A stretch of DNA of 64,000 nt from Acidimicrobiia bacterium (lineage in GTDB: Bacteria; Actinomycetota; Acidimicrobiia; Spongiisociales; ZC4RG35), in the NCBI GenBank assembly GCA_046756405.1, contig JBHHWH010000001.1, positions 3,133 to 67,132 of the forward strand, in the 5' to 3' direction. Each line of letters starts with the position of its first letter. Position 1 is the first letter of the stretch. Under the pieces are notes generated by a model that was not told the origin of the DNA, ran no database searches, and worked only from the letters and a program-made list of their open reading frames with translations. Position numbers and translations under genes: made by a program. Of this stretch, positions 2,805 to 60,925 are shown in pieces.

Positions 2805-3797
2805 GTGAAAGCAACGGTAGGAATCCTTGTCACGGCCCTGCTCGTGGCTGCGTGTGGAGGCAGCAGTGCTCCGGAGACAGGGGACCAGGCTGGCGGCGCC
2901 ATCGTCATCTCCGGCTCGTCGACTGTGGAGCCGGTGTCGGCTCGCGTCGCCGAAACCTATGGAAGCGAGCGCCCCGAACTCAGCATCTCCGTGGACGGTC
3001 CGGGCACTGGAGACGGCATGAAGGTGTTCTGCGCCGGCCAAGCCGACATAACGGGCGCTTCCCGGCCCATCAAAGAGCCCGAGATCGAGACCTGCAACCA
3101 GAACGGGGTGACGTTCATCGAGATCCCGGTGGCGATCGACGGCCTCAGCGTTCTCACCTCGCATGACAACGACCTGGTTGCATGCCTCGCCCCGGCCGAC
3201 CTCTACGCTCTCGTGGGCCCCGAGTCCATCGGATTCGGAACCTGGGGCGACGCCAACGACCTGGCTGCCGAGCTGGGTGCCGCCAACGCCCCCTATCCGG
3301 ACGTCCCGTTGGTGATCACTGGACCGGGTGAGGAGTCGGGCACTTACGATGCCTTCGTGGAGATGGTCCTAGAGGACATCGCCGAAGAACGCAGCCAGGA
3401 AGCGGCTACCCGTCCGGATTACACCGCCTCGGCCAACGACAACGTCATCATCGAGGGAATCTCAGGCTCCGACACTTCCCTCGGCTGGGTGGGCTACGCC
3501 TTCTACATTGCCAACCAGGACAGGGTGAAGGCCCTGGCCATCGCCGGTGGCGAGGGCTGCGTGGAGCCCACGCCGGAGACGATCGCCGATGGCAGCTACC
3601 CGCTCTCCCGGACCCTATACATCTACGTGAGCGTGGAGAAGGCACAGTCGAAGCCGGAAGTGGCCGACTTCGTCGACTTCTACCTCTCCGACGAGGGCCT
3701 GAAGGCGGTGGACGACGCCGGATACGTCCGCCTAGACGACTATGACCCCTCCCGCCAAGTTTGGGAGACCCGGACCCCCGGCCACCGCGAAGGATGA
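2805..3797 (+). CDS. pstS: Phosphate ABC transporter substrate-binding lipoprotein PstS.
   Basis: Lipobox LVAAC-GGSS, then ISGSSTVEP, GTGDG and the overall PstS fold signature. GTG start, with a GGGAG SD 10 nt upstream. Confidence 0.9.
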   Translation: MKATVGILVTALLVAACGGSSAPETGDQAGGAIVISGSSTVEPVSARVAETYGSERPELSISVDGPGTGDGMKVFCAGQADITGASRPIKEPEIETCNQNGVTFIEIPVAIDGLSVLTSHDNDLVACLAPADLYALVGPESIGFGTWGDANDLAAELGAANAPYPDVPLVITGPGEESGTYDAFVEMVLEDIAEERSQEAATRPDYTASANDNVIIEGISGSDTSLGWVGYAFYIANQDRVKALAIAGGEGCVEPTPETIADGSYPLSRTLYIYVSVEKAQSKPEVADFVDFYLSDEGLKAVDDAGYVRLDDYDPSRQVWETRTPGHREG

Positions 3798-4729
3798 GCC
3801 GAGAGGCCCCCAGCAAACCCTTGCTAGCCTCCTCCCTGGCAGGGGATCCGAGGCGGACCCGCCGAGAACAGCGGGTTCGCCTCATGCTGGTGATGGCCGC
3901 CGCAGCGTCGGTCATGGTCTCGGGGGCGATCCTGGTCACCCTCGCGGGGAAGGCCTGGGACTTCTTTCGCGCCGTCGACCCGGCAGCCCTGTGGACGGTC
4001 GGCTGGTTCCCCCGCCGTGACCTCTACGACCTCCTGACCCTCGTGTCGGCGACGGCCCTGATCGCCGGGGTGGCCATGGTGGTGGCAACGCCGCTGGGCT
4101 TGGGCTCGGCCATCTACCTCTCGGAGTACGCCCGGCCAGCCGCCCGGAGGGTGTTGAAGCCTTCCCTCGAAGTGCTGGCCGGCGTCCCTTCGGTGGTGCT
4201 GGGATACTTCGCCCTCACCTGGATCAGCCCTGAAATCATCCAGCGGCTCTTCGGTGGTGGAGTCTTCTCCATGGCCGCCGCCGGCCTCGGCGTCGGGGTA
4301 TTGGTGACCCCGCTGGTGGCCTCGGTCTCAGAAGACGCCATGGGGGCCGTCCCCTCCGACCTCCGCAACGCCGGATTCGGCCTCGGGGCTCGACGGTCGG
4401 CGGTCGTGCGGCGGGTGGTCGTACCAGCCGCCCTTCCCGGCATCGTCGCCTCGCTGATCCTCGGCGTCTCCCGGGCTATAGGAGAGACGATGGTCGTGTT
4501 CATGGCCGCGGGCGCGGTAGGGGGAGCCCTTCGAAGCTTCGACCTGTTGGGACCGGGCCAGTCGATGACGGCGGCCATGGCTGCCCTGGCCGTGGGCACA
4601 GATCAGGTCGCCGGATCTGGGCTTGCCTTCGAGAGCCTCTTCTTCGTGGGGCTCCTTCTGTTCGTGATGACCCTGGGGCTCAACATGGCAAGCAACCGCT
4701 TGGTCCGCAGGATGAGGGACCGCTACTGA
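3794..4729 (+). CDS. pstC: Phosphate ABC transporter permease PstC.
   Basis: Multi-TM permease with an EAA-like loop, immediately downstream of pstS. ATG overlaps the pstS stop (ATGA). Confidence 0.88.
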   Translation: MSREAPSKPLLASSLAGDPRRTRREQRVRLMLVMAAAASVMVSGAILVTLAGKAWDFFRAVDPAALWTVGWFPRRDLYDLLTLVSATALIAGVAMVVATPLGLGSAIYLSEYARPAARRVLKPSLEVLAGVPSVVLGYFALTWISPEIIQRLFGGGVFSMAAAGLGVGVLVTPLVASVSEDAMGAVPSDLRNAGFGLGARRSAVVRRVVVPAALPGIVASLILGVSRAIGETMVVFMAAGAVGGALRSFDLLGPGQSMTAAMAALAVGTDQVAGSGLAFESLFFVGLLLFVMTLGLNMASNRLVRRMRDRY

Positions 4730-5688
4730 TGGCGCTCCGCACACCCGCCGTGGACTCCACCGAAGCTGTAGGCGCCGCCCTGAGGGGCCGCCGCACGCGC
4801 ATCGGCGAAGTCGGCTTCCAACTACTGCTTCTCAGCACACTTCTGGCAGCGCTGCTGATCCTCGTGGTGTTGATCGTCGATGTGGTAGTCGGTGCCATAC
4901 CGGTGTTCGCCGAACGGGGACTCGGGTTCATCACTAATCCCCTGTCCCTGGATCCCACCTCCGCCGGCGTCTACACCGCCGTCCTCGGCTCCCTCGGACT
5001 CAGTGCCGTCGTAATTCTGGTGTCCTTCCCCGTCGGCATCGGCGCCGCCATCTACCTGGCGGAATATGCTCCCGACAACCGGCTCACCCGGTTCATCGAC
5101 ACCAATATCCGCAATCTGGCAGGAGTCCCCTCCATCGTCTACGGCCTCTTGGGCCTGGCCATCTTCGTTCCCTTGGTGGCTGCCGTCGGCCTGGGGGGAC
5201 CTCCGGGGGTGGAGGGCAGGAACCTGTTCGCCGGAGGGCTGGCCCTGGCCACGCTGGTGCTCCCCATCGTGATCATCACCAGCGTGGAGGCCCTCCGGGC
5301 CGTTCCTTCAGACCTTCGCATGGCCGCCTACGGCGTCGGTGCCACCCAGTGGGAGGTGATCCGACACCATGTGCTCCCAGTCGCTGCCCCGGGGATCCTC
5401 ACCGGGACGGTGCTCACCCTGGCCCGAGCCTTCGGTGAGACCGCCCCGCTGCTGATGGTCGGGGTAACTACCGGGTACTTTCAGGCGGGTACCGGTGTGG
5501 GTCTCTTGGACAGGCTCACCGGGAAGTACACCGCACTGCCCGTCACCGTGCTCTCTTGGTCACGCCAGCCGGGGGGAGGTTTTCAGGACCATCTGGCCCC
5601 GGCCGCCATCGTCGTCCTGCTTGTCGTGTTGCTGGGAGCCAACGCAACGGCGATCATCCTGCGCAATCGCTACGAGAGGAAAGGGTGA
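4729..5688 (+). CDS. pstA: Phosphate ABC transporter permease PstA.
   Basis: Second permease of the pst operon. The start overlaps the pstC stop by 1 nt (TGATG). Confidence 0.88.
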
Positions 5689-6554
5689 GCTTGAACACGA
5701 GGACTAACCCGCCGATTCGGCCGGACGCGCCGCCCGAAGAGGATCAAGCGGCTCACCACACAGAGGGCAACGAGGGCCGCGAGGTCGTCTTCGACATCGA
5801 GAACCTCACCGTCTACTACGGCGACTTCCGCGCGGTCGCCGAGGTGAGCCTCCCGGTCTACGCCCGGGAGATCACAGCCCTCATCGGGCCCTCGGGATGC
5901 GGCAAGAGCACGGTCCTTCGCTCCCTCAACCGGATGAACGACCTGATCGAAGTCGCCCGGGTCGAGGGTCGGGTTCTCTACCACGGGGTAAATCTCTACG
6001 ACCCCAAGGTTGACGCGGTAGAGGTCCGCCGGCACATCGGCATGGTCTTCCAGAAGCCCAACCCGTTCCCCAAGTCGATCTATGAAAACGTTGCTTTCGG
6101 GCCCAAGATCGCAGGCCACAAAGGCAACCTCGACGACGTCGTAGAAGACTCGCTGCGCAAGGCAGCCCTGTGGGAAGAGGTGAAAGACCAACTCGACGGC
6201 CATGCCTACGCTCTCTCGGGAGGCCAGCAGCAGCGACTCTGCATCGCCAGGGCGATAGCCACCAGCCCCGACGTTCTGCTCATGGACGAGCCAGCCTCCG
6301 CCCTAGACCCCATAGCTACCCTTCGCATCGAAGAACTGATGCTCGAGCTGAGGCGTCACTACTCCATCGTGATCGTGACCCACAACATGCAACAGGCCGC
6401 CCGGGTAAGCGACCGCACCGCATTCCTCAACGTCGACGTGGGAGAGGACGGCCAGCGCACCGGCCGCCTAGTGGAGTATTCCGAGACTGACCGCCTGTTC
6501 ACGAACCCCTCCGAGAAGGCCACCGAGGACTACATCACGGGGCGGTTCGGATGA
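5685..6554 (+). CDS. pstB: Phosphate ABC transporter ATP-binding protein PstB.
   Basis: Walker [13 protein letters not shown] signature LSGGQQQRL, and Walker B LLMDEP. GTG start overlaps the pstA stop (GTGA). Confidence 0.9.
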
Positions 6555-7240
6555 GCGAAGTTCGCAGCCAGTTCCATGCTGCCATGGAGGAGCTGGAGAC
6601 CAGGCTCGTAGAGATGGCAGAACTTGCCACCCACCAGATCAAGGAGGCCGTGGCCTCCCTGATATCCGGAGACGTGGACCGCGCCGAAGCGGTGGTGGCC
6701 TCCGACGATGAGATAGACGAGATCTACCTCGAAGTAGAGAACCGCTGGCATGAGGTCATGGCCCGCCAAACGCCGGTGGCGTCGGATCTCCGTCGGATGA
6801 CCCTGATCCTCTCCGCCAACCACAGTCTGGAACGCATTGGCGACCAGTCGGTCAACATCGCCCAGGTGGTCAAGGCCACCGCCGGGCTCCCCCGCCGAGA
6901 GACCATCCTGTTACACATCCGGGAGATGGCAGCCATGGTGACCGACATGCTGGCTGTGGCGATGGAGGCTCTGGCCAGACGGGAGCTGTCCCTGGCCCTT
7001 CGCCTCCCTGAGATGGACGACCCGGTGGACTTGCTCAACCGCAACATGTATCGGGAAGTAGCCGACTGTGGTGAAGATCACGATCTACTGGAGTGGGCCC
7101 TGCGGATGCTGCTCGTAGCCCGGGCCCTGGAACGTGTCGGCGACAGGGCTGTGGACATTGGCGAACAGGTAGCGTTCCTGCTGACCGGCGTCTTCCGGGA
7201 GTTCTCCAACGACAGTTCCATCAATCTCGATGCCGGCTGA
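6551..7240 (+). CDS. phoU: Phosphate signalling complex protein PhoU.
   Basis: Two PhoU repeats (E..R.GD motifs: [10 protein letters not shown] and [10 protein letters not shown]). ATG overlaps the pstB stop. Confidence 0.9.
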
Positions 7241-7922
7241 GGTCCGCGTTCTGGTCGTCGAAGACGAAGAGTCCCTCGCCGAGTCGATCGCTTACAACCT
7301 TCGCCGCGAGGGATTCACCCCGCAGATCGTCACCGACGGCAGTCAGGTGCTCGGTGCCGTGCGGGTTGACCCTCCCAGCCTGATCCTGCTGGACCTGATG
7401 CTGCCAGGGATGAACGGGCTCGACGTGCTGCGCGCCCTCCGCGCCGAGAAGTCAGCCGTCCCGGTGATAATCGTCACCGCCAAGGACACCGAAGCCGACG
7501 TGGTGGCCGGCCTGGAATTAGGCGCCGACGACTACGTCACCAAACCCTTTTCCATGAGAGAACTCCTCTCCCGGATCCGGGCCCTCCTCCGTCGCACCAG
7601 ACCGCCCGAGAGAAGGCGGATGGTGCTGAGGGGCGGACCCGTGGTGATGGATCTCGACCGCCACGAGGTGACGGTCCATGGAGATCCGGTGAAGCTCCGC
7701 CCCAAGGAGTTCGAGCTTCTCGAGGCGCTGCTGACCCGCAAGGGAGACTTGGTACCGCGGGATGTGCTATTGGAGGAGGTATGGGGATACACCTTCTTTG
7801 AGGACACCAAGACCCTCGATGTCCATGTGAAACGGCTCCGATCGAAGATCGAAGAGGACCCGGCGAACCCGATCCACATCGTCACCGTGAGGGGTTTCGG
7901 CTACAAGTTCGTCGATGACTGA
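7230..7922 (+). CDS. OmpR-family response regulator (PhoP/PhoB/RegX3-like).
   Basis: Receiver domain (VLVVEDEESL, the phospho-Asp in LILLDLMLPGMNG, and KP in VTKPF) plus a winged-helix trans_reg_C C-terminus (GYKFV). Overlaps the phoU stop. Confidence 0.85.
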   Translation: MPAEVRVLVVEDEESLAESIAYNLRREGFTPQIVTDGSQVLGAVRVDPPSLILLDLMLPGMNGLDVLRALRAEKSAVPVIIVTAKDTEADVVAGLELGADDYVTKPFSMRELLSRIRALLRRTRPPERRRMVLRGGPVVMDLDRHEVTVHGDPVKLRPKEFELLEALLTRKGDLVPRDVLLEEVWGYTFFEDTKTLDVHVKRLRSKIEEDPANPIHIVTVRGFGYKFVDD

Positions 7923-9606
7923 CCGCGTCCGGCCGTTCCGCCGCCGTCTCGTGGCCTGGTATGCAGGCATGCTCATCCTGCTCCTGGCGAGCTTCGGCGT
8001 CATGCTCTCCCGCTCTCTGGAGCGGATGCTCCTGGACCAACTCACAGAGTCCCTGGTAGGCGAGGCCAAAGCGGTGAGCCTGGCCCTACCCAGAGAAGAC
8101 TCCGCCCTTCAGGCGTCTGTCATCAACCTGGGCGAGAACCTCAGCATCAGGATCACGGTCATCGCGCCCGACGGGACCGTGCTCGCCGACTCCGACGCCG
8201 ACCCTTCGACCATGGAGAATCACGCCGGCCGCCCTGAGGTCGCTGGGGCTATCTCCGGGGACATCGGCGTAGCTTCCCGTACCAGCGCCACGGTCGGTGA
8301 GGCGCTCCGATACGTGGCGCTTCCGGTTTCCCAGGGCCGGATAGTGAGGGTGGCGGTGGCGGAGACGGACGTTGAAGCCCGGATGGCCTCGCTGCGAAGC
8401 ATATTGGTGGTTGGGGGCGTGATTACCGGCCTGGTCGGATTGGTGGGAATCGACCTGGTGGGTCGTGCGGTGACCCGACCCCTGGAACAGCTCACAAGCG
8501 CGGTGAGTGAGGTTGCGGAGGGTGTCGAAGCGACGACGGCCATCGCCTCGTCGGGAGTAGCGGAGTTGGATCGCTTGGGGGAAGCAGTGAAGCGTCTCGC
8601 CTCGGAGGTGGCCCGCCGGGTAGACCAGCTCAGCCGGGAGCGAGAACTGCGGGATGTGGTCCTTTCGGCCCTAGACGTGGGCGTCGTGCTGGTGGAAGAA
8701 GCAACAGTCGTCTACACCAACCCGGCGGCCCGGGAGATTCTCGGCACCGAACCTGCAAACGTCTCCCAACTTCATCCGGCACTCCTCCAGGAGTTGATTC
8801 GGCTCGCCTCGTCGCAGGACACCGGGGGAAGCGGAGAGTTTGAGACCCCGACCGGTGTCGTCGTGGCCTCGGCTCTGCCGCTCTCCGAGACGGACCAGAT
8901 CCTCCTCACCCTCACCGACGTGACCGAGGCCCGCAGGGCTGACGCCGTTCGCCGCGACTTCGTCTCCGCCGCCTCCCACGAGCTCAAGACCCCTGCGGCG
9001 GCGATCCAGGCCGGAGCTGAGACGGTGATACGGGCCTTGGAGGACGACCCCGAGGCCGCCGACTACTTCGCCCGCAGGATCGAGGCGGACGCCCTGCGGC
9101 TCTCCCGGATCGTGGCGGACCTACTCGACCTGTCCCGATTGGAAACCCAGCACCTCATAAGGGAGCCGGTGGCGCTGGACGGGGTGATCCGGGATGAGGC
9201 GGAGAGGCTGGGCTCGGTACCCGTGGATTTGGCCGTCGACGCCGAGGAGCACCTGGTCGTTGAAGGGAATGCGTCGGACCTGGGCCTTGCCGTGCGCAAC
9301 CTCTTGGACAACGCCGTCCGCTACACCCAAGCGGGAGGCCATGTCCAGGTGAGACTGACCTCCAGTAACGGCGAGGCGATCGTCGAAGTCATCGACAACG
9401 GGGCCGGGATTCCCGCTGCCGACCTGCCTCGCATCTTCGAGCGCTTCTACCGGGTGGACGAGGCCCGCTCCCGCCGCACCGGAGGGACCGGGCTGGGACT
9501 GGCCATCGTCAAGCACGTGGCTGAGCAGCACGGCGGCCGGGTGGAGGCGGAGAGCGTCCTCGGCCAAGGGTCTACGTTCCGCATCATCCTGCCCATTGCG
9601 GAATAA
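7915..9606 (+). CDS. Sensor histidine kinase (PhoR/SenX3-like), partner of the preceding regulator.
   Basis: N-terminal TM helices, the HisKA H-box ASHELKTPAAAI, and HATPase_c N/G boxes (DNAVRYT, DNGAGIP, GGTGLGLAIV). Start overlaps the regulator stop. Confidence 0.85.
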   Translation: MTDRVRPFRRRLVAWYAGMLILLLASFGVMLSRSLERMLLDQLTESLVGEAKAVSLALPREDSALQASVINLGENLSIRITVIAPDGTVLADSDADPSTMENHAGRPEVAGAISGDIGVASRTSATVGEALRYVALPVSQGRIVRVAVAETDVEARMASLRSILVVGGVITGLVGLVGIDLVGRAVTRPLEQLTSAVSEVAEGVEATTAIASSGVAELDRLGEAVKRLASEVARRVDQLSRERELRDVVLSALDVGVVLVEEATVVYTNPAAREILGTEPANVSQLHPALLQELIRLASSQDTGGSGEFETPTGVVVASALPLSETDQILLTLTDVTEARRADAVRRDFVSAASHELKTPAAAIQAGAETVIRALEDDPEAADYFARRIEADALRLSRIVADLLDLSRLETQHLIREPVALDGVIRDEAERLGSVPVDLAVDAEEHLVVEGNASDLGLAVRNLLDNAVRYTQAGGHVQVRLTSSNGEAIVEVIDNGAGIPAADLPRIFERFYRVDEARSRRTGGTGLGLAIVKHVAEQHGGRVEAESVLGQGSTFRIILPIAE

Positions 9607-14471: not shown

Positions 14472-15146
14472 TTACGGCTTGTAGTCGTCGGCCTGGTCGG
14501 GGATTGTGGTGTCGGCGCTGTCGGCCTCGTCCGGCAGCACGGTGTCAGGATCGGCCTGGTCCGGTACGACCTCCTCTGGGACGATCTCGGCGTTGTCGTC
14601 GGCAGTGTCCAGACCCTCCGAGGCCTTGCCGTCGGAAGCAGTATCGGCCACGTCCGATCCGAAGTCTTCGCCGGTGGTGGGATCCGAGTTTTCGATCACA
14701 TCGGTCACCGCCTTCGCGACATCGTCGGCGGCGTCGTCGGGTCCCGGTATCTCGACACCGATGAAGTCGAAAGCCTGGGCCGCCCAGGCTTGTGCCGGGT
14801 CGGGCAAGTTGCCGGTGGCAGCGAAACCGCCGGCCGTCGTGGCGAGGGCCACGGAGCCGATCAGCAGCTTCCCGAGGAAGGACGAAAGGATTGTGCTCAG
14901 CATGATGCGTCGCCTCCATCTCATGGGTAGGGGTCTTCCGGCCCGGAACCTGGTCCGGGTCGGGACGCCAGAAGCACGGGTCACCTCGACGGCCAGAGAG
15001 GCCGGGAGACCGGTGTCGTAACCGGTCACCGTCGAGTCCGACAGGGTCCCGAGCAGGTTTGTCACCTGATCATCGAGATCAGGAACGGATTCGCCGGCGA
15101 GAAACCGGTCGATCGTTTCGTCGAGTTGTCGCTTCGAGCGTCTCAA
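14472..15146 (-). CDS. Putative membrane anti-sigma factor with an acidic repeat-containing extracytoplasmic tail.
   Basis: Its start overlaps the stop of the upstream ECF sigma gene by 4 nt. It has an N-terminal cytoplasmic segment of about 80 aa, one TM helix (IMLSTILSSFLGKLLIGSVALATTAGG) and a D/E-rich C-terminus with degenerate PDxAD repeats. No zinc HxxxCxxC motif is present. Confidence 0.5.
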   Translation of the reverse strand: MRRSKRQLDETIDRFLAGESVPDLDDQVTNLLGTLSDSTVTGYDTGLPASLAVEVTRASGVPTRTRFRAGRPLPMRWRRRIMLSTILSSFLGKLLIGSVALATTAGGFAATGNLPDPAQAWAAQAFDFIGVEIPGPDDAADDVAKAVTDVIENSDPTTGEDFGSDVADTASDGKASEGLDTADDNAEIVPEEVVPDQADPDTVLPDEADSADTTIPDQADDYKP

Positions 15147-15823
15147 TTCACCTCCGTTACCGACGGAGACGACGAAATCCCTACGCCTTTGGTGAGATTC
15201 TTTCTCAGACGGCGGATCGCCCGATGCTGTAGCGATTGCACCGCCCCGGGGGTCTTTCCCATGATCGCGGCGATCTCGGTTATACCGAACCCCCCGAGAA
15301 CGCGCAGGACCATGACTTCCCTCTGGTCCCTTGAGAGGGTGGAGAGGATCGCGTCAACCTCCTCTCGGTCGAAGGTCTCCATGGCGGCGGATTCGGCAGA
15401 CTCGACGGGAGTGTCTGCTGCGTCGAGGAACTCGATGGCGGTTGGGTCTTCACGACGCCTTCCCCGCCTGCGGCGCTCGTCAATGATCCGATGGTGAGCG
15501 ATGGTGAACACCCAGGAGCGGAATCCCGAATACTCACCCGAGAAGCGTCCAATGCTGCGAGCCACCTGAAGCCAGATCTCCCCAGCAAGGTCGTCCGGAT
15601 CCGCCGCCCCCTGACGCCGCAGATACCCCCTGAGGACCGGGTCGATCTCGGCCACCAGCAGCTCCCAGGCCCACTCGGCTCCGGCCCGGGCCGCCTCCAG
15701 GACGGCACCGAACACCTCGCTGGACAGCGAGGGTGGAGTCCTGGCCTTGCCGGAGTCGGTCACGGTCACCTGAGTAACCGACGCGACCGGCCCTCTCCTT
15801 ACGGGGTCTCCGGGAGCACCCAC
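15143..15823 (-). CDS. ECF-family RNA polymerase sigma-70 factor.
   Basis: Region 2 (EIWLQVARSIGRF...FRSWVFTIAHHRIID) and region 4 HTH (LSRDQREVMVLRVLGGFGITEIAAIMGKTPGAVQSLQHRAIRRLR). Confidence 0.85.
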   Translation of the reverse strand: MGAPGDPVRRGPVASVTQVTVTDSGKARTPPSLSSEVFGAVLEAARAGAEWAWELLVAEIDPVLRGYLRRQGAADPDDLAGEIWLQVARSIGRFSGEYSGFRSWVFTIAHHRIIDERRRRGRRREDPTAIEFLDAADTPVESAESAAMETFDREEVDAILSTLSRDQREVMVLRVLGGFGITEIAAIMGKTPGAVQSLQHRAIRRLRKNLTKGVGISSSPSVTEVN

Positions 15824-17183: not shown

Positions 17184-18776
17184 CTACTCCGACGATCGAA
17201 TCCCGGCTCGGCTCGGCGACCTGACGGCGTGGAGATCGCAGGCGAACGCCCACCTCTCCCCGTCCCGCTCGAACCGAAGAGCACCTCCCGCGGCAGCAGC
17301 GACGGTGCAGGCATAGCTGATGCCGAGGCGGTCGCCTGCCTCCGGGGGCATCACATCGGGCCGCACCAGAAGACTCCACGTCCTATCGAGGGGGGTCTCC
17401 GAATCGATGTCAGGTCCCGGACCTAGGTCCCACAAGCGAAGACGGACCCCTTCGCCGACCCGCTCGGCGGAAAGGGTGACAGGAGGGGTGCCGTGCTTGA
17501 GCCCGTTATCGATCAGCTCGCTTAGGGCCACAGCAAGAAGTTCCGGTTCACAGCGAACAGTCGAGTCGAGCTCCCCCTCGATCACCAACACCGAGCTCAA
17601 GCCAGGGCGAGCCGGAATCACATGCTCGTCGATCAGCTCCCGGACCGTCACCATCGTCTCCGGCCACTCAGGAGCCCGTTGCAGCCTCAGCATCGAGCTG
17701 ATCCTGTTGAGAAGCCTTTCAATCCGAGCCCCGCCTTCCCGTATGGCCTCAGCAGCCTCTCGCAGCTCCTCGTCCTCCAAGTCCCCTTTGGCTATCAACT
17801 CTGAATAGGCGATGACCGGCGACAGAGGGGTCCTGAACTGGTGGTTGGCCGACTCCAAGAACCGCCGGTGCTGCTCTCCGGCCACCACCTGACTGGTCAC
17901 ATCCTCGGCGTACACCATCAGCATTGGAGGCTCGCTCGCAATCCGATCATGGGACATTCCAATCCGCAGGAACGTCTGGCGACCGTTGGCAGACCTCGTC
18001 ACATAGAGAGAAGGCGACCCCGGGTCTCCCGATGCCCCTACCCGCCGCAGTACTTCTCTCAAGTTCTGTGGGGGTCCATCCGAAGGTGTGGCCTCTGTGA
18101 CCGACGAGAGATCGGGCTCAGTGAGGCCAAAGCGTCGCGCCGTCTCATTGGCAAATAGGCAGCTCAGTGATTCGCAGTCGTACAGGGCGAAACCAATTGA
18201 CGCCTCCTCGGCGATCCGCGCTGCAAGGGTAAGGGCCCGAACTGACTCCTCTTGCCAGTGCTCGGAGAGGGCACGACTCCACAGCAGCAACCCTATGAAG
18301 GCCAGAAAGACGCCCAGCCTGACGACACTCGTGCCGGTCACATCATCGGCCAACGCGATCACTCCCAGATAGGAGACCGTGGCGGCCATCGTGAGTCCGA
18401 TGAGCCTTCGCACCGGACCGGTCACCGTCTCCCAGACGACCACGATCAGCATGGAGAAGAAGAGCGGGCTCTCCGTGCCCCCATCCAGCGCCACCAGAGC
18501 GCCCGCCAGCCCCAGCGACCCCGCTCCTCGAAACATGCATACGTGTCCCCTAAGCCCCGACTTCACCCGTCCAGCAAGAACGTTCAAACTCGCTCGCCAC
18601 GCCCACAGAGCCCCGGCTACCACCAGTACGCCGACGGGCCGCAGCACGTCACCGAACACGACGAGCGCCAGGACATGCATGGAGACGATCGGTCCGACAG
18701 GATCAAACCGCTCGATCCACGACTGCCAGCGGGGTCTTCGGGCTTCGATAATCGAAAAGCGACCCTCTGGATGCAT
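17184..18776 (-). CDS. Membrane-associated sensor histidine kinase (orphan; no adjacent response regulator).
   Basis: Several N-terminal TM helices and a PAS-like linker. HisKA H-box NHQFRTPLSPV and HATPase_c boxes (LIDNGLKHG, DLGPGPD). Start chosen at the ATG at 18776 (MHPEGRF...), because the further upstream ORF translation is Arg/Pro-rich junk. Confidence 0.8.
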   Translation of the reverse strand: MHPEGRFSIIEARRPRWQSWIERFDPVGPIVSMHVLALVVFGDVLRPVGVLVVAGALWAWRASLNVLAGRVKSGLRGHVCMFRGAGSLGLAGALVALDGGTESPLFFSMLIVVVWETVTGPVRRLIGLTMAATVSYLGVIALADDVTGTSVVRLGVFLAFIGLLLWSRALSEHWQEESVRALTLAARIAEEASIGFALYDCESLSCLFANETARRFGLTEPDLSSVTEATPSDGPPQNLREVLRRVGASGDPGSPSLYVTRSANGRQTFLRIGMSHDRIASEPPMLMVYAEDVTSQVVAGEQHRRFLESANHQFRTPLSPVIAYSELIAKGDLEDEELREAAEAIREGGARIERLLNRISSMLRLQRAPEWPETMVTVRELIDEHVIPARPGLSSVLVIEGELDSTVRCEPELLAVALSELIDNGLKHGTPPVTLSAERVGEGVRLRLWDLGPGPDIDSETPLDRTWSLLVRPDVMPPEAGDRLGISYACTVAAAAGGALRFERDGERWAFACDLHAVRSPSRAGIRSSE

Positions 18777-18983
18777 CTTCGTTACCCCACTTGCCGCCAA
18801 AACCAGATGACCGGCGACTCCGAGACGCGCCAGGCCCGGCCTCCCCCGTCGGCGACGCCGGCTCCACCTTCCTGGCACGCCGGCCGCCGACGGGTTCGGT
18901 CGGACAGGACACCCCTCCTCGCGGTCGCCCGGAGAAAGCTGGAGACCCATGCCTGCCCTTCGCCCGCGCCACCGGGATTCGGG

Positions 18984-19076
18984 TCAGCTCATGTCGCTGA
19001 TGGAAGCGAGGGCGGGAAGAGCGACTGAAAGTGCGCTGGCAAGAGCAAGCACAAACACGGTGACACGGCGTCGCAT
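18984..19076 (-). CDS. Candidate 30-aa small membrane peptide (MRRRVTVFVLALASALSVALPALASISDMS).
   Basis: ATG preceded by a canonical SD AAGGAGGTG at 7-nt spacing. The peptide has an Arg-rich N-terminus and one hydrophobic helix. It lies between the large SARP regulator and the orphan histidine kinase on the same strand. Confidence 0.3.
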   Translation of the reverse strand: MRRRVTVFVLALASALSVALPALASISDMS

Positions 19077-19177
19077 TGGGGCACCTCCTTGAGTCCGGCT
19101 GTTTTTCACAGCCGAGTATGCGGAGACCCCGTCTCCCAGATGTCTCACATTTCAGGGCGGACCGCCAAGACCTTCCG

Positions 19178-22100
19178 TCACGAGGCCCGATATCTGGTCC
19201 CCCGGGTGGCGAGGCGGCAACCAGCCTCGCGCAGCGCCTTCAAGTCGCGTCCCACCGTCGAGGCACTCACCCCTAGTGCCTCGGCGAGCTGTTCGATCGA
19301 GGGCAGTGCCCCCTGGTTACGGGCTTCGGTCACGAGCCTCTGCAGTCGGCGGCGCCGCCGCTCCACGGGCGACGGAATCTCCTCGTCATCGGGGTGGGCA
19401 ACGGTCCAGATGACATGCACCAGCTCGCCGGCGGCGAGGGGTCGACCCAGGGGGCTTCCCATCGCGGGCAGCATCACCTCGATCTGTCGGGGTGAGACCC
19501 GCTTCCAGGTCTCGACGATCTCAGCATGCTCTGGGACTCGCTCCAGCGCCTTCGCTCGCTCGTCGTCCGTAAGCCCTTCCAGGGTGGCAAGGAGTAAGCG
19601 GTGGGCCTTCTCGGCAGCACGCCGGGCTTCCTTGACCTCACCGGCCGCCGCGGCGGCGACGGAATGCCGGTGGTGTACCAGATGGGCACGCTCGACCCCC
19701 GGCACGAGCTGGTCGACTGCTTGGCGGGCAGTGGCGAGGGCGGTGTCTACGTCTCCGATGGCCAACAGGACTGCCCCGCGGATAGAGAGCAGCTCCACGC
19801 CCAGGGAAGCTTGAGCGGTCTCCCGGCACACGACATCAGCTTGGTCGAGGACGGCCAGGGCCTCCTGGTGCCTTCCTGAGCCCAGATACAACAAGGCCAG
19901 GGAACGAAGGTGCTGACCCTCGAGGGAACGGTTGCCGCTCCCGCGAAGCTTGTCCAGGCTCTCGGCGAGGAGTTGGCCTGCTTCGTCGTTCCGACCCTCG
20001 AGGAGGGCTGCCCCGGCCAGGATCTCCAAGCATTGGGCCTCTCGGGCGGGATCACCGATGCTCACGAATTGGTTCATCGCCCGCCGTGCATCGGCTCGGG
20101 CCCGTTCAGCGTCGCCGAGGAGGCTGAGACGGACCGATGCTGCGTTGACAAGCACCATCGATTCACCGCGACGGTCGCCGAGATCGGAGAAGACGTGCGC
20201 CGCCTGCCCATAGCTGGAGAGGGCCTCCGCTACCTGACCCATGTAGTAGTGGAGGTTGGCTTGGTTCACCAGATTTACACCCTCGCCATGGCGATAGCCG
20301 ATCTTCCGGCAGATCTCGATAGCAGTCCCGTAGCGGGCCAGCGATCCCGAGGCGTCGCCCAGCTGGCGAAGGGCGCGCGCCTCGATGCCCAAAACCTCTG
20401 CTTCACCGCGGAGATCGTCGAGTTCCCCGAAGAGAGAACGCGCACCGGTCAGATGCGGAAGCGCATCGGTGCACCGCTGCACTTCGACCAGAGTGCTACC
20501 CAACTCGGTGTGGGCCTGAGCTCGTATCTGATCGTCGTCGGCTGCTGAAGCCACCGCCGCTTCCAACTGGGATACCGCACGCAGGGGGTGCCCCGACCAG
20601 CGCAGACAGGTACCCAATGCCACCAGGGCCGCCGCCAACGCACCTTGGTCACCCCGGAGACGCTCCACCTCCACGGCGTGGCGAGCCGCCTCTTCGGCCT
20701 CGGCGAAACGGCCCAAATGAGCAAGGAACCAAGCCCTTCGCCGTTCGAGATCGCCCTCCAAAGCGGGGTTGGTCTCGACGAGGGTCATCATCTCCTCAAT
20801 CACCTCGCCCTGTTCGCTGCGAAGGCCCAACACGTCAAGGACGAACTCCAGGTGGCCAGCCACTCGGTATCGTTCCTCCGGCGCCCACATCGCCCGCGTT
20901 GCTGCCAGATGGGCTGCCCGGAAGTGCTGGCGGGCGGTCGCAAAGGCGTGAAGCTCCTCGGCCCGGAGGCCCGCATCGAGTAGGAACCGAGCTGCCCGCT
21001 CAGGGATCCCGCCCTCCCAATAGTGGTGGCCCAGGGCCGCCACATCTTCTGAGCTGATTTCGACCAATGCCTCCGCCACCCGGCGATGCAACTCGGTGCG
21101 GAGACCCTCCTCGAGACCCTCGTAGACGACCTGGCGTACTAGGTCGTGGGCTATCCGATAGAGGCCAGGACCCGCCTCTTCGAGGAGCCCACGATGAACG
21201 AGATCCTCGACGGCATCCAGCAGCGAAACCCGGGGGGATCCACTGACCGTCTCCAGTACTGCCAGGTCGGCGACACCACCGCACACCACGGCGACCTCGA
21301 AAACTGCTCGGGCGTCTTGGCCGAGCAGTGAGACGCGAGAGTCGACGACCGACCTCACCCGGGGGGCGACCGGGACCCTTCGGCCGGCGAACTCCTTCTC
21401 GAGAACTTCGCCTGGATCACCACCGGTCTCGAATAGACCCTGGTCACGGAGGGTCAGCAACGTCTCCAACGTGAATAAGACGTTCCCGCCGGTCTGGCGG
21501 TGCAGGCGGACTGCCACCGTCGGATCCAAGTTGGTCAAGCCCAGGATGGTCTTGACCATGTCGCCAAGCTCGAAAACGGACAAAGGCGAGAGCACGACTC
21601 TCCCCAGGCCTGCAACACGGTCCAGATCGCGGAGGAGGTCCCACACCTCCATGTCACTTCGACCTTCCTCGCTCCTGTAGAGCAGGAGCAGCAGGACGCG
21701 CGAACCGGGAAGCCGAGAGCCGAGCTGGGCGAGCACACCGAGTGTGTCCCGGTCGACCCAATGCACATCATCGAGAATCACCAGATGCGGGGCGATCCGG
21801 CCCAAGGCTCCGATCGTGGTGACGAGCGCCTCCTGCATCCGCGTCGACTCCTCCGCCGGACGCAGCGGGGTCGATCGAGAAGACGCTGGCTGCCGTCCCC
21901 CGAGGAAGGGGGCGAGTCGCATGGCCTCTCCAAGCCAGACCGGCTCGAGTTCCTCGGCGAGCTGCTCAGCCCTGAGAGGGCTGATTGACTCCAATACCTC
22001 AGCCAGCGGACCGAAGGGGCGAACGGTCCCCTCATCGCAAGTACCCCAACTGACTTCGAATCCACGCCAGCGGGCGGCGTCTGCCGCCTCCAGGGCCAGC

Positions 22101-23074
22101 CGGGTCTTGCCGATGCCGGGTTCCCCCTCCACCAGCACCACGCCGCCATGGCCGGCGAGCACCCGCTCCATGGCGCTGACGATGGTGCGCCGCTCCTCTT
22201 CTCGCCCGACAAAGGGAGTGCCGGACCGAGCACCCAACACGGAGGCGCGTTCCTCACCGCCCAGCGGCCGGATCGCGGCTCGCCGCTGCTTGAGGATTCG
22301 CCGGTACAGATCCACAGTGGGCTGGGAGGGCTCGGCACCCAGCTCCTCGGCCAGCACCGACCTGCACCGTTCGAACTGCTGCACCGCTTCGCTGGTACGC
22401 CCCAGAAGAAAGCAGAGCCGCATGACCTCCTGGTGTGCTTCTTCGCGAAGGGGATCGTGGTGGGTGAGCCGTCGAGCGTGGGCCAGAGCCTCTTCGTAGT
22501 CACCGTGGGCTTTGGTCACTTCAACGAGACGGCTCAGAGCCGCAAGGTAGCGCTGTCGGTAATGGTCCTGTTCGACGGTCACCCAGTCGTCGAAGAACCC
22601 TGCAAGGAAGTCGCCTCGATACAGCTCAACACAGGTACGCAGGGCCGCGGCGTCTCCGGAGCGGCTCAGGACGGAGTCACGCCGTGATATCTGGAGAGAC
22701 TCAAAGATCACATCGAATTCCTCGACGTCCAGCCAGTAGGGGACCGAAGTGTCGAAGCTGAGAGTGTCCGCCGTGGTCACCAAATGTGCCTCTTGATCGC
22801 CGCCCACCGTGTCCTGTATCTGCCACAGAGTGTGGCTGAGCCGACGCCGCGCCCGCCCCTCAGGAAGATCGGGCCAGAACAGACCGGCGAGGAAGTCTCT
22901 TTGTAGAGGTCGGCCCCGGTGCATTGCGAGATAGGCGAATAGCGATCTCCCAGAACGTGAGGCAATCGGCGCCAACGGCCTGCCCCCGCGTTCCAAGAAG
23001 AAGCCACCGAATAGGTATACCCGCAGCGGATCCATGACATCCATCCTGGCCGTCGGCCGAGCCGGGCCCAGCAC
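19178..23074 (-). CDS. Large multidomain transcriptional regulator: N-terminal SARP/BTAD (OmpR-type winged helix), P-loop NB-ARC/AAA ATPase, TPR repeats, and a C-terminal DeoR-like HTH.
   Basis: N-terminus LRVYLFGGF...LFAYLAMHRG...YRGDFL (SARP, AfsR/DnrI-like). Walker A GEPGIGKTRLALEAA, and a long TPR-like alpha-helical region. The C-terminal segment PSIEQLAEALGVSASTVGRDLKALREAG is HTH-like. GTG start. My hand indexing near the start codon was off by 1 nt. Confidence 0.8.
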   Translation of the reverse strand: MLGPARPTARMDVMDPLRVYLFGGFFLERGGRPLAPIASRSGRSLFAYLAMHRGRPLQRDFLAGLFWPDLPEGRARRRLSHTLWQIQDTVGGDQEAHLVTTADTLSFDTSVPYWLDVEEFDVIFESLQISRRDSVLSRSGDAAALRTCVELYRGDFLAGFFDDWVTVEQDHYRQRYLAALSRLVEVTKAHGDYEEALAHARRLTHHDPLREEAHQEVMRLCFLLGRTSEAVQQFERCRSVLAEELGAEPSQPTVDLYRRILKQRRAAIRPLGGEERASVLGARSGTPFVGREEERRTIVSAMERVLAGHGGVVLVEGEPGIGKTRLALEAADAARWRGFEVSWGTCDEGTVRPFGPLAEVLESISPLRAEQLAEELEPVWLGEAMRLAPFLGGRQPASSRSTPLRPAEESTRMQEALVTTIGALGRIAPHLVILDDVHWVDRDTLGVLAQLGSRLPGSRVLLLLLYRSEEGRSDMEVWDLLRDLDRVAGLGRVVLSPLSVFELGDMVKTILGLTNLDPTVAVRLHRQTGGNVLFTLETLLTLRDQGLFETGGDPGEVLEKEFAGRRVPVAPRVRSVVDSRVSLLGQDARAVFEVAVVCGGVADLAVLETVSGSPRVSLLDAVEDLVHRGLLEEAGPGLYRIAHDLVRQVVYEGLEEGLRTELHRRVAEALVEISSEDVAALGHHYWEGGIPERAARFLLDAGLRAEELHAFATARQHFRAAHLAATRAMWAPEERYRVAGHLEFVLDVLGLRSEQGEVIEEMMTLVETNPALEGDLERRRAWFLAHLGRFAEAEEAARHAVEVERLRGDQGALAAALVALGTCLRWSGHPLRAVSQLEAAVASAADDDQIRAQAHTELGSTLVEVQRCTDALPHLTGARSLFGELDDLRGEAEVLGIEARALRQLGDASGSLARYGTAIEICRKIGYRHGEGVNLVNQANLHYYMGQVAEALSSYGQAAHVFSDLGDRRGESMVLVNAASVRLSLLGDAERARADARRAMNQFVSIGDPAREAQCLEILAGAALLEGRNDEAGQLLAESLDKLRGSGNRSLEGQHLRSLALLYLGSGRHQEALAVLDQADVVCRETAQASLGVELLSIRGAVLLAIGDVDTALATARQAVDQLVPGVERAHLVHHRHSVAAAAAGEVKEARRAAEKAHRLLLATLEGLTDDERAKALERVPEHAEIVETWKRVSPRQIEVMLPAMGSPLGRPLAAGELVHVIWTVAHPDDEEIPSPVERRRRRLQRLVTEARNQGALPSIEQLAEALGVSASTVGRDLKALREAGCRLATRGTRYRAS

Positions 23075-59115: not shown

Positions 59116-60852
59116 ATGCGACTGAGCGTGGCGGGGTTGGCACTGATAGTGGCGTGCACCGCGGTGCCGGCGCCGGAGACCACCATCTCCACCGAGGCGG
59201 CATCGACGACGGTGGCGCCGACGACCACCACCACGATCCGGCCGGTGCCCGACCCGGAGTTCACCATGCGGGTCTCGGTGGGTTGCATGCCTTTGTTCGA
59301 CTTGATCATCGCCGAGCTGTCGATTGTGGAGTGTCCCGAATGGGGTATGCCCCTCCAGCCCTCCCTCTACCGGCTGGTCCCTCCCACCGCCACCTTGGTC
59401 CCCCTCCTCGCCGCCGACCCGACCCCTCCCCTGGGCCAGGCCACCGACGACGGCTGGGAGATCGTGGTGACCTTGCGCCAGGGGGTCACCTGGAGCGACG
59501 GCACCGTCGTGGATGCCGAAGACGTCGTCTACACGTATCAAGTCTTGAGTGACCAAGCCCCCTGGCGTTTCTCTTACACCGTGGAGGCGATTGACGACTT
59601 CACCGTCCGCTATGTCTGGGAAGAGAGGCCTACCACAAACATCTGGCAGTTCGAGGCCGCCCTGGCCCCCATCTTCTCCGCCGACTTCTGGGGAGCCCAG
59701 CAGGAACGACCCGAAGGTGGTTTCGGCTTCACCCCCGACCTCGAGCCCACCGCGATCCCCACCACCGGCCCCTACCGTCTGGCCGAGGTAGACGACGACT
59801 TCGAAGGCTGGATCCTGGAGGCAGTCCCCGCCTGGTGGGAGGCAGGCTCGTCGTTCACCGTGTGGCGTAACGGGTCGGTCCGCTATCGCAATCCCAACCT
59901 CGGCCTCGACGAGACCTACGGAGAGCCGGAAGGCGATGTGATAGCCGAGTGGACCGTGGGTCCCTACGCCTCCCGGGTGGAGTACTCGGTGTTTGGTGGC
60001 GTAAACGCAGAGATAGATGCTTTCCGAGAAGGTGACATCGACCTGATGCTCAGGAGCGTGGACTTCCCCTCGGGCATCCCCGACCTGGGGGCAGCCGCGG
60101 GGCTGGTGAGAAGCGTTCTCGGTGTCGACGTAGTGGTCTTCGAGTTCGATGCTCCTCCCTTCGACAATGTCGCCGTCCGCCGGGCCGCCGCCTGCGCCTT
60201 CGACCCCCAAGTCCTGGTCGGGAAGGTCCTTCCCGGCAAGGTCCTTCCCCCCACCGGATGGGGTGTCGGCCTCGGACCCTGGTGGGAGGACGCGTCCCTC
60301 GACTGCGAAGGAGTGGGGACGGGGAACATCCTCGAGGGGGTTCCCGTGGCAGGAGTTCTGGTCCGGCCCCCGGAGTACTCCCCGATACCGGCTGCCGTGG
60401 CCGCGGCGGTCTACGACTGGCTGGCTGGCCTGGGTGCTGAGCCCATCGACGGTTTCATCGAAATGGGCAGCATCTTCGATGATGACAGCGTGGCCGAGTT
60501 CACCGTCTTCGGGCTCGGCATCGACCCCGTACGTTTGATCACCAACCCTCGCGTCCTCATCGACACGGACATCGGCTGGCAACCTCCTGAAGCGGTCGCC
60601 CTCCTCGACCAGATTCGCAGCGCCTACGACCTGGAGACCGAACAGGCCGCCTACCGGGAGCTCCAGCAACTCGTCGCCGACCAGATCCCAGCGGTTCCTG
60701 TGCTCCGGCAGACAATGGTGGAGGCCTTCAACACCCACACCATCCTCCCGCCCTTCGTCACACCCACCGAAGACGGCTACACCACACCCCTCATCGGCGG
60801 TCTCCGGAACTGGGAGTCATGGGTCGTCCCCGCCACCCGTCAAGCCCCCTGA
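59116..60852 (+). CDS. ABC transporter substrate-binding lipoprotein, family 5 (peptide/nickel/opine type), paralogue A.
   Basis: Lipobox LIVACTA. SBP_bac_5 hallmarks include VTWSDGTVVDAEDVVYTY, GPYRL and large bilobal size. No permease or ATPase genes are adjacent. Confidence 0.8.
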   Translation: MRLSVAGLALIVACTAVPAPETTISTEAASTTVAPTTTTTIRPVPDPEFTMRVSVGCMPLFDLIIAELSIVECPEWGMPLQPSLYRLVPPTATLVPLLAADPTPPLGQATDDGWEIVVTLRQGVTWSDGTVVDAEDVVYTYQVLSDQAPWRFSYTVEAIDDFTVRYVWEERPTTNIWQFEAALAPIFSADFWGAQQERPEGGFGFTPDLEPTAIPTTGPYRLAEVDDDFEGWILEAVPAWWEAGSSFTVWRNGSVRYRNPNLGLDETYGEPEGDVIAEWTVGPYASRVEYSVFGGVNAEIDAFREGDIDLMLRSVDFPSGIPDLGAAAGLVRSVLGVDVVVFEFDAPPFDNVAVRRAAACAFDPQVLVGKVLPGKVLPPTGWGVGLGPWWEDASLDCEGVGTGNILEGVPVAGVLVRPPEYSPIPAAVAAAVYDWLAGLGAEPIDGFIEMGSIFDDDSVAEFTVFGLGIDPVRLITNPRVLIDTDIGWQPPEAVALLDQIRSAYDLETEQAAYRELQQLVADQIPAVPVLRQTMVEAFNTHTILPPFVTPTEDGYTTPLIGGLRNWESWVVPATRQAP

Positions 60853-60857
60853 TGTAA

Positions 60858-60910
60858 CCTTTCTGTGCGGGTTTGCGGACCGTTTTGGCCTGAAGACCCG
60901 CACAGAAAGG
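60858..60910. repeat. Inverted repeat / hairpin IR-B (CCTTTCTGTGCGG-27 nt-CCGCACAGAAAGG) between SBP gene A and SBP gene B.
   Basis: 13-bp perfect stem with a 27-nt loop. The loop is 22/27 identical to that of IR-A. It is followed by an identical tcttgagagggcgagATG leader. Confidence 0.6.
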
Positions 60911-60925
60911 TCTTGAGAGGGCGAG

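Follow-up and report, generated by a model that had tools for sequence, protein, structure and literature searches.

Background

Peptide signalling through tetratricopeptide repeat (TPR) regulators is treated in the literature as a feature of Bacillota, and the signals typical of Actinomycetota are enzyme-made small molecules rather than genetically encoded peptides (PMC10075063). In the described RRNPP systems (Rap-Phr, NprR-NprX, PlcR-PapR and AimR-AimP, from Bacillota and phages), a pre-peptide gene led by a Shine-Dalgarno sequence adjoins a co-directional gene for a cytoplasmic TPR regulator, and the pre-peptide combines a basic N-terminus and a hydrophobic core with a short stretch at its C-terminus (the last 4-10 residues) that is presumed to be the mature signal. 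Here we analyse a 64-kb stretch of DNA from an Acidimicrobiia bacterium (contig JBHHWH010000001.1; the whole stretch of 64,000 nucleotides is referred to as the window), in which a 30-codon gene lies on the minus strand between the genes for a large AfsR-like regulator and a histidine kinase. The reading that we favour, with modest confidence, is that the regulator and the small gene form a two-gene cassette, a sensor-regulator followed by a pre-peptide gene, which may produce a secreted hexapeptide signal; in the favoured version this signal is sensed by the system that makes it.

The wiring of such a cassette would resemble that of Streptomyces coelicolor, where afsS lies immediately downstream of afsR and is a direct target of AfsR, a large SARP-NOD-TPR regulator. 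AfsR is required for afsS transcription, and AfsS, a cytoplasmic protein of 63 aa, has no signal peptide (PMC6988585). Targets of SARP regulators carry direct repeats 11 bp apart, the spacing between the 3' repeat and the -10 element being 8 bp, and the box overlapping the -35 element; the -10 hexamer of the AfsR-controlled afsS promoter is CACTGT (PMC10936776). A 2026 preprint describes the native activating signals of AfsR-like NLR-type regulators as unknown, and its section on AfsR-like regulators names no adjacent peptide genes (bioRxiv 10.64898/2026.09.02.748808).

A conserved small gene

The small open reading frame (ORF) runs on the minus strand from an ATG at 19076 to a TGA at 18986-18984, and its 30 codons encode MRRRVTVFVLALASALSVALPALASISDMS. 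A Shine-Dalgarno sequence, AAGGAGG, is located 7 nt before the ATG (19084..19090, minus strand), and GGAG/GAGG-type motifs were read by eye at the equivalent place in related loci. Gene callers report the identical 30-mer on two independent Logan contigs, where it has the same neighbours, and in public annotation the ORF is at most a 'hypothetical protein'.

A search with the upstream regulator, limited to one genome per species, recovered 65 loci. The closest are metagenome-assembled genomes mostly labelled Acidimicrobiia (54-67% identity), followed by loci labelled Actinomycetota, Actinomycetes or Nitriliruptorales (38-46%) and Chloroflexota (26-35%); all relatives are metagenome-derived. 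We examined 23 related cassettes, 16 of them Actinomycetota loci anchored on the regulator and 7 reached from the peptide sequence (L-numbers below label loci). An ORF of 30-32 codons with a shared design, namely M, two or three K/R, about 16 hydrophobic residues, P-A-x-A and a tail of 5-7 residues, is present in 23/23. Among seven Acidimicrobiia-type orthologues, each of exactly 30 codons, the ratio of nonsynonymous to synonymous divergence (dN/dS) is 0.05-0.31; synonymous sites are saturated (proportion of synonymous differences, pS, 0.51-0.81; of nonsynonymous differences, pN, 0.12-0.35), and the variable columns at codon positions 1, 2 and 3 number 18, 13 and 28.

The small ORF is a genuine gene under purifying selection. 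The original prediction, made from the letters of the window, had proposed a real ORF with a strong Shine-Dalgarno sequence, a basic N-terminus and a single hydrophobic stretch, about 100 nt below the regulator stop, and had named a lack of frame conservation in relatives as the result that would speak against it. The recurrence of the design and the dN/dS values show that the frame is conserved; the protein has an MRRR n-region and a hydrophobic core, and the measured distance to the regulator stop (TGA, 19180-19178) is 101 nt.

The family has gone without a name in the resources that we searched. With the single 30-mer as the query, phmmer returned five matches at E<=1e-3 among 1.84 billion representatives, all belonging to one family. 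The peptide matched no family in Pfam or NCBIfam, Rfam gave no match at E<=1 in the peptide and intergenic region, and PADLOC returned nothing for the peptide and only generic TPR and HTH (helix-turn-helix) matches for the regulator.

The regulator and its association with the peptide

The regulator gene occupies 19178..23074 on the minus strand and encodes 1298 aa from a GTG start (1285 aa according to gene callers). Pfam matches place a SARP DNA-binding domain with BTAD first, followed by an AAA_16/STAND ATPase (Walker A GEPGIGKT), a TPR sensor region (TPR_12, E 8.4e-21, plus TPR_1, TPR_2 and TPR_8) and a C-terminal HTH_11/DeoR-like/DUF1670 region; a MalT-like TPR match is weak (24 bits, cut-off 45). 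In structure alignments, residues 17-337 match the SARP domain and the beginning of the NOD in the AfsR structures 8k60/8jke (E 2.7e-12). The protein also aligns to EmbR (2fez), and weaker NOD and TPR segments align to AfsR 8k60. Because it scores 88.7 bits on the NCBIfam AfsR equivalog NF053617, against a cut-off of 1430, it falls short of orthology and is best regarded as an AfsR-like large SARP with an extra C-terminal HTH, not as AfsR itself.

The regulator and the peptide gene are found together whichever of the two is used as the starting point. In each of the 16 Actinomycetota loci that include the 3' end of the regulator gene, the ORF begins 83-163 nt beyond the regulator stop, in the same orientation. 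In the reverse direction, peptides found by peptide sequence alone were all traced behind a large gene of this regulator type, and where Pfam data are on record the upstream gene has the architecture BTAD-AAA_16-TPR-DUF1670.

The kinase gene behaves differently. In the clade closest to the window the kinase is a soluble 340-aa protein with no membrane segment (L003, L007, L009, L017, L029 and L078), whereas membrane kinases of other types are found in the window, L077 and L011-L014 (2-4 membrane segments in the window and L011-L014). It is absent from L010, L015, L020, L022, L079 and L080, which include a whole clade, and in L079 and L080 the next gene is a convergent glyoxalase gene. The conserved unit is therefore the regulator plus the peptide, and the kinase is facultative. 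Since the kinases are soluble or missing in many loci, a membrane peptide cannot be their dedicated modulator, and the pairing with the kinase proposed in the original prediction gives way to an invariant pairing with the regulator. We regard the adjacent kinase as an accessory, possibly co-regulated component and not as an obligate partner.

Two loci contain what appear to be kinase remnants. L021:4354-4646 holds a C-terminal piece of a window-type kinase in two frames (49-59% identity to residues 476-578), and in L004 only a 33-aa kinase-like fragment (L004:5449-5547) lies below the peptide gene. Either kinase decay in that lineage or assembly error would account for them.

Precursor organization

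The 30-mer, written with a slash at the predicted cleavage site, is MRRRVTVFVLALASALSVALPALA/SISDMS. Codons 1-24 (19005..19076, minus strand) encode a predicted Sec/signal peptidase I signal peptide with the n-region MRRR, the h-region VTVFVLALASALSVAL and the c-region P-A-L-A; codons 25-30 and the stop (18984..19004, minus strand) encode the hexapeptide SISDMS that is predicted to be released on the basis of tail conservation (calculated [M+H]+ 639.265). Mean column entropies across 14 distinct Acidimicrobiia-type precursors are 0.00 bits in the n-region, 1.19 bits in the hydrophobic core, 0.42 bits in the c-region (P-A-x-A) and 0.61 bits in the six-residue tail, so that the tail is more conserved than the core that precedes it. 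In these 14 precursors M-R-R-R, P21 and A24 are invariant, A22 is present in 13 and position -3 is A or V; A occurs at -1 in 16/16 aligned sequences. The n-region carries two or three K/R, the h-region of about 15-16 residues is variable in sequence and hydrophobic throughout, and P stands at -4. In the tail S25, S27 and M29 are invariant, position 26 is I, V, L or G, and position 28 is D, E, N or L.

A six-residue unit follows A-x-A in all clades. The 6-mers of other clades (GIDNMR, GTQYMG, GTAYMT, SISNVS, SVRHVS, GYANAS, AVVNIR and (A)IRNMH) differ from SISDMS, and the signal-like part is retained. In the GIDNMR-x clade (P0009-P0013, L015, L022 and L079-L081), precursors that are otherwise >90% identical have L, H, G, P or I as the seventh residue, which may be either unconstrained (trimmed off) or under diversifying selection. 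Because this residue varies freely among near-identical precursors, we take the constrained unit to be the six residues that follow A-x-A.

A core that drifts, a cleavage motif that stays fixed and an exposed tail under constraint are what one would expect of a cleavable Sec/signal peptidase I signal joined to a functional short peptide, and not of a mere membrane anchor or an enterococcal-type 'signal-peptide pheromone'. The sequences agree with the rules for such signals (positive n-region, hydrophobic h-region, small residues at -3 and -1), and cleavage is predicted from them. The 30-aa product would thus enter the membrane with its RRR end inside, signal peptidase I would cut after P-A-L-A, and SISDMS would be freed outside the cell; we consider insertion in this orientation followed by this cut probable. 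A 'signal-only peptide' was among the options listed in the original prediction, and the layout with P-A-x-A appears to agree with it.

Other fates of the nascent chain were considered. A Tat signal is unlikely, as the twin arginine becomes KR in three clades. A Sec-monitoring arrest peptide of the SecM/MifM type was ruled out by reasoning alone, because a 30-aa chain is still inside the ribosome tunnel at termination and no pulling force could be sensed while it sits there.

The original prediction had leaned towards a small-protein modulator of the orphan kinase, taken here as a single-pass membrane micro-protein that is not cleaved and acts as MgrB and SafA do on PhoQ. The comparison has some basis in the window: a tiny protein with a single hydrophobic segment is encoded beside a histidine kinase with about four membrane segments, the basic N-terminus and about 20 hydrophobic residues could span the membrane, and the three genes are co-directional, the stretch from the ORF to the kinase containing no convincing terminator. 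The coupling to a membrane kinase fails, however, across the family. The peptide co-occurs with the regulator and not with the kinase, at least three unrelated N-terminal kinase types follow one peptide family, and the kinases of the closest clade are soluble and separated from the ORF by strong hairpins (z -3.7 to -4.7). Moreover, a membrane anchor needs neither an invariant P-A-x-A nor a conserved exposed tail, and the hydrophobic stretch here ends in both, which fits a cleavable signal better than an MgrB/SafA-type anchor. We therefore hold kinase modulation to be improbable.

Small hydrophobic membrane peptides of type I toxin systems, such as TisB or Ibs, are similar to the 30-mer in size and hydrophobicity. 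We consider this identity very improbable: no antisense promoter or RNA signal was detected over the ORF, PADLOC gave no match, and a strong Shine-Dalgarno sequence, a signal-peptidase motif and strict pairing with an activator are not features of type I toxins.

Promoter architecture of the small gene

A SARP-type box of two direct repeats with an 11-bp period lies between the two genes of the cassette (19125..19146, minus strand), consisting of GAGACAT (19146-19140), ctgg, GAGACGG (19135-19129) and ggtc. Exactly 8 bp after the heptamer of repeat 2 is a -10-like hexamer, CATACT (19115..19120, minus strand), and a hexamer of the form xAxxxT occurs at this spacing in every box-bearing locus. 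The intergenic alignment gives the consensus GAGACAx, 4 bp, [G/A/T]AGACxx, exactly 8 bp, xAxxxT, and the full geometry of repeats plus hexamer was found in 22/23 loci. The hexamer is CATACT or CATAGT in Acidimicrobiia and CACCGT, CACGCT or GACCAT elsewhere. The pattern is also almost confined to the cassette: the only exact match to GAGACA-N5-RAGAC in the window is the box itself, and of 15 matches to RAGACA-N5-RAGAC in 67 loci (~650 kb; fewer than one expected by a chance estimate), 13 are at the cassette box. A second match in L009 (L009:4004-4019, minus strand) lies about 6 kb upstream of the cassette beside a histidine-kinase-like gene (tblastn 4015-4761), and could be a second regulon member or a chance occurrence.

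No -35 match and no sigma-70-type promoter was detected on the minus strand at the small gene, and because a -35 match is missing the promoter looks activator-dependent; transcription would start near 19108. The geometry agrees with the published SARP/afsS rule, in which two 11-bp repeats overlap the -35 region and 8 bp separate the 3' repeat from a weak -10 (CACTGT in afsS; CATACT/CACCGT-type here). From this geometry the SARP domain of the regulator is predicted to bind the two 11-bp-spaced GAGACAx repeats as a side-by-side dimer. The repeats would replace the -35 element of the small gene's promoter, so that binding would switch on a short transcript as AfsR does for afsS. On the strength of the geometry, its conservation and the AfsR-afsS precedent, we consider it very probable that the SARP domain binds the repeat box and activates the small gene. 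Within the regulator, conservation is also highest in the SARP domain (50-76% identity to the window protein; TPR region 33-63%), which fits a conserved operator. The GAGACAx motif was read from these loci alone, and no base-by-base match to the afs box is implied.

A hairpin, GGAGAC-ggg-GTCTCC, had been noted between the regulator and the small ORF in the original prediction. The inverted repeat does exist (19136-19122), and its 5' arm is the second repeat of the promoter box, so that the hairpin consists of repeat 2 plus a chance complement. A reading of GGAGACgggGTCTCC as a terminator was rejected: it folds no better than shuffled sequence (z -0.74), has no T-run and is not conserved in orthologues. 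Conserved structure in the 5' untranslated region (5'UTR), or sequestration of the Shine-Dalgarno sequence, was likewise rejected when hairpins drawn by eye failed, with z near 0 in most loci.

A further conserved element, TGACGGAAGGT (19170..19180, minus strand), overlaps the regulator stop codon 23 nt upstream of repeat 1. Its consensus, TGAC(G/C)GAAGGT, overlaps or follows the regulator stop and is common to L003, L004, L009, L017, L021, L029, L077 and L078; most Actinomycetota loci have it. The offset from repeat 1 is 23-24 nt, or 13 nt in L007 and L011, a shift of about one helical turn, and is kept even in loci with the stop codon elsewhere. This element might be a candidate site for the extra C-terminal HTH of the regulator.

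Downstream of the ORF, several orthologues have GC-rich hairpins directly after the stop codon (L003:6290-6345, L007:10069-10105, L009:10050-10104 and L017:10072-10117). These have stems of 10-17 bp, z-scores of -3.7 to -4.7 and no T-run, and occur in loci with soluble kinases. They suggest a separate short transcript. The window has no equivalent post-ORF hairpin (z +1.1 for 18850-18986), so that co-transcription with the kinase is possible there.

The same region bears on whether the ORF could be a cis-acting leader that controls read-through into the kinase gene, with a peptide that is itself functionless. The ORF precedes the kinase gene in the same orientation, and the orthologue hairpins begin within about 10-25 nt of the stop codon. 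Purifying selection, however, acts on specific residues (RRR, P-A-x-A and S-x-S-x-M-S), the ORF persists in L079 and L080 where no co-directional gene lies downstream, and no alternative structures, conserved 5'UTR fold or Rfam match was found. We consider a leader function very improbable.

Proposed sensing of the peptide

The most likely role of a released SISDMS would be that of a diffusible signal. In the favoured version of the cassette, it would return to the cytoplasm by way of an Opp/Dpp-type permease and there bind the TPR sensor domain of the STAND regulator that drives it, giving an autoinducing loop with a logic like that of Rap-Phr or AimR-AimP. We put this step forward tentatively, as a possibility that may well not hold: sensing after import by the TPR region of the same regulator, with positive feedback, would be the most economical arrangement, and import and TPR binding are the weakest step of the model.

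Two tandem genes for SBP_bac_5 (OppA/DppA-type) solute-binding proteins are located elsewhere in the window (59116-62605, plus strand). Such genes are ubiquitous; they are compatible with oligopeptide uptake in this organism and lend weak support to it.

The architecture of the regulator also resembles that of MalT-type STAND factors, which join a STAND ATPase to a DNA-binding domain and to a C-terminal sensor built of helical repeats, and in which a ligand bound by the sensor switches on ATP-dependent multimerisation. Unlike MalT, which has a sugar ligand and a LuxR-type HTH, the regulator described here has a SARP-type DNA-binding domain, and its candidate ligand, by prediction, is an encoded peptide.

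Several observations weigh against the favoured reading. The divergence of the tail correlates with that of every regulator domain (Spearman 0.57-0.70), with no TPR-specific co-variation, although with 15 related sequences this is a weak test. The regulator has no homology to RRNPP receptors in Pfam, NCBIfam or structure alignment. The predicted cleavage rests on motif rules, and the 20-residue hydrophobic stretch could remain in the membrane. The tail is rather conserved within Acidimicrobiia, as opposed to the rapid pherotype diversification of many Phr systems, and the known Phr and AimP precursors, at about 40 aa, are longer than the 30-aa pre-peptide. One locus, L020, has the peptide and no recognisable repeat box. 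Finally, a kinase gene follows the peptide gene on the same strand in about 15/23 loci, a recurrence that the model leaves unexplained.

This recurrence and the lack of TPR-specific co-variation are in line with a rival reading in which the regulator drives a secreted hexapeptide without TPR feedback, the peptide being sensed elsewhere, for example by the neighbouring kinase where this is membrane-bound or by another receptor, or being active outside the cell. There is a precedent for one-way wiring, in that AfsR activates afsS and AfsS acts on other targets (PMC6988585), and the kinases of the window and L011-L014 have 2-4 membrane segments. However, the closest-clade kinases are soluble and a whole clade is without one, the window kinase is of the ordinary HisKA type with no AgrC/ComD-type family reported in the Pfam and NCBIfam scans, and among the invariant neighbours the regulator alone carries a ligand-sensing domain. 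We consider such an output-only arrangement unlikely, and retain the self-sensing cassette as the favoured reading.

Comparison with peptide-TPR systems and AfsR-afsS

The RRNPP family has a signature of five criteria, and the detector built on it filters receptors to 250-500 aa (PMC10075063). Four of the five features apply here, one of them by prediction: the propeptide is 30-32 aa (range 10-100), the receptor has TPRs, the genes are direct neighbours (83-163 nt), and a Sec-type secretion signal is predicted from the n/h/c-region motif rule (A-x-A, P at -4). The last 4-10 residues would in addition form the mature signal. Receptor size alone departs from the signature (1285-1298 aa versus 250-500), and because of this filter the regulator would be hidden from RRNPP_detector. 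In gene order and pre-peptide layout the cassette resembles the RRNPP pairs, and the mature AimP signal is likewise a C-terminal hexapeptide (PMC6458997). It is unlike them in its receptor, a 1298-aa SARP-STAND-TPR-HTH protein rather than a 250-500-aa RRNPP fold, in a precursor of only 30 aa that lacks a pro-region, in the predicted status of export, import and binding, and in its phylum, Actinomycetota. By analogy, the cassette may work like an RRNPP system without belonging to that family.

The likeness to AfsR-afsS lies in a large SARP-NOD-TPR regulator, a small gene as its apparent direct target and the promoter geometry described above. The products differ, as the peptide encoded here has 30 aa and a signal-peptide-like N-terminus, which set it apart from AfsS by size and description, and the regulator is distinguished from AfsR by its equivalog score (88.7 versus 1430 bits) and its extra C-terminal HTH.

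The window kinase and neighbouring genes

The histidine kinase gene (17184..18776, minus strand) encodes about four membrane segments by hydropathy, a HisKA domain and a degenerate HATPase_c domain. Its ORF is open from an ATG at 18950, the start chosen by gene callers. As the first 58 codons look non-coding by composition and homology to the closest relative (L077, 66% identity) begins at residue 58, the start is most likely the ATG at 18776. This lies about 207 nt beyond the peptide stop, close to the 200 nt given in the original prediction. The designation as a PAS kinase was not borne out, since Pfam gives only HisKA and a sub-threshold HATPase_c (21.0 bits, threshold 26.4). The G-rich ATP-lid region, GLGLGL in aligned orthologue kinases, reads GDRLGISYA in the window kinase, which may be catalytically impaired. 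With the kinases of the other aligned loci the window kinase shares only 19-27% identity, and it was rejected as their orthologue; its true relatives are in L077 (66%) and in the frameshifted remnant of L021.

As had been noted originally, no response regulator is close by: the nearest (7230-7922) has a partner kinase of its own and is separated by about 9 kb from the end of the orphan kinase gene. It belongs to a pst-phoU-phoPR-like phosphate cluster (2805-9606, plus strand) that encodes a PstS-like binding protein, two permeases, an ABC ATPase, PhoU, an OmpR-family response regulator and a sensor kinase whose matches are Cache-like, HAMP and PAS-like. At the afsS promoter of Streptomyces, PhoP is in competition with AfsR (PMC6988585). 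A gene pair (14472-15823, minus strand) some 1.4 kb past the kinase gene comprises an ECF-type sigma factor gene (15143-15823) and, after it, a 224-aa ORF (14472-15146) whose start overlaps the sigma factor stop; this ORF has no Pfam match and is possibly an anti-sigma factor gene. Taken as a whole, the interpretation given in the original prediction is partly supported.

In Chloroflexota, too, a small gene comes directly after the gene for the regulator's relative (26-35% identity; L018:9757-10040, L025:10049-10270, L024, L028 and L019:7904-7920), and L018 and L019 have a direct-repeat box, CGACACAtttaCGACAC, in the space between the two genes. Their product is a distinct, non-secreted protein of 60-75 aa with the pattern F-[IV]-[VL]-R-[IV]-W-x-E...W-R-[GA]-x-[VI]-Q-H-x-x-S-G and no Pfam match.

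Implications

The cassette has the arrangement of a peptide with a TPR regulator and AfsR-afsS-type wiring, and is more likely to represent peptide signalling in Actinomycetota than a membrane modulator of a kinase. In the literature searched we found nothing describing peptide signalling with TPR/STAND receptors in Actinomycetota or signalling peptides linked to SARP regulators. It is conceivable, although we think it rather doubtful, that this is the first peptide-pheromone system outside Bacillota with an AfsR-like STAND (NLR-type) receptor, in which an exported hexapeptide is re-imported, binds the TPR region and triggers ATP-dependent activation. If true, a genetically encoded peptide would be the ligand class for a branch of AfsR-like sensors, and the receptor filter of 250-500 aa would explain why existing detectors miss such cassettes. 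Even if the feedback is wrong, what remains is an unannotated, strongly conserved family of 30-aa genes whose promoter and regulator are defined. As switches, AfsR-type STAND regulators are central to antibiotic production, and the cassette gives a directly testable ligand hypothesis for them, built on a synthetic 6-mer together with a 22-bp operator and a sensor domain that are both defined. It also raises the possibility of a means of communication among Acidimicrobiia, Nitriliruptorales and related lineages, which are common in soils and waters and for the most part uncultured.

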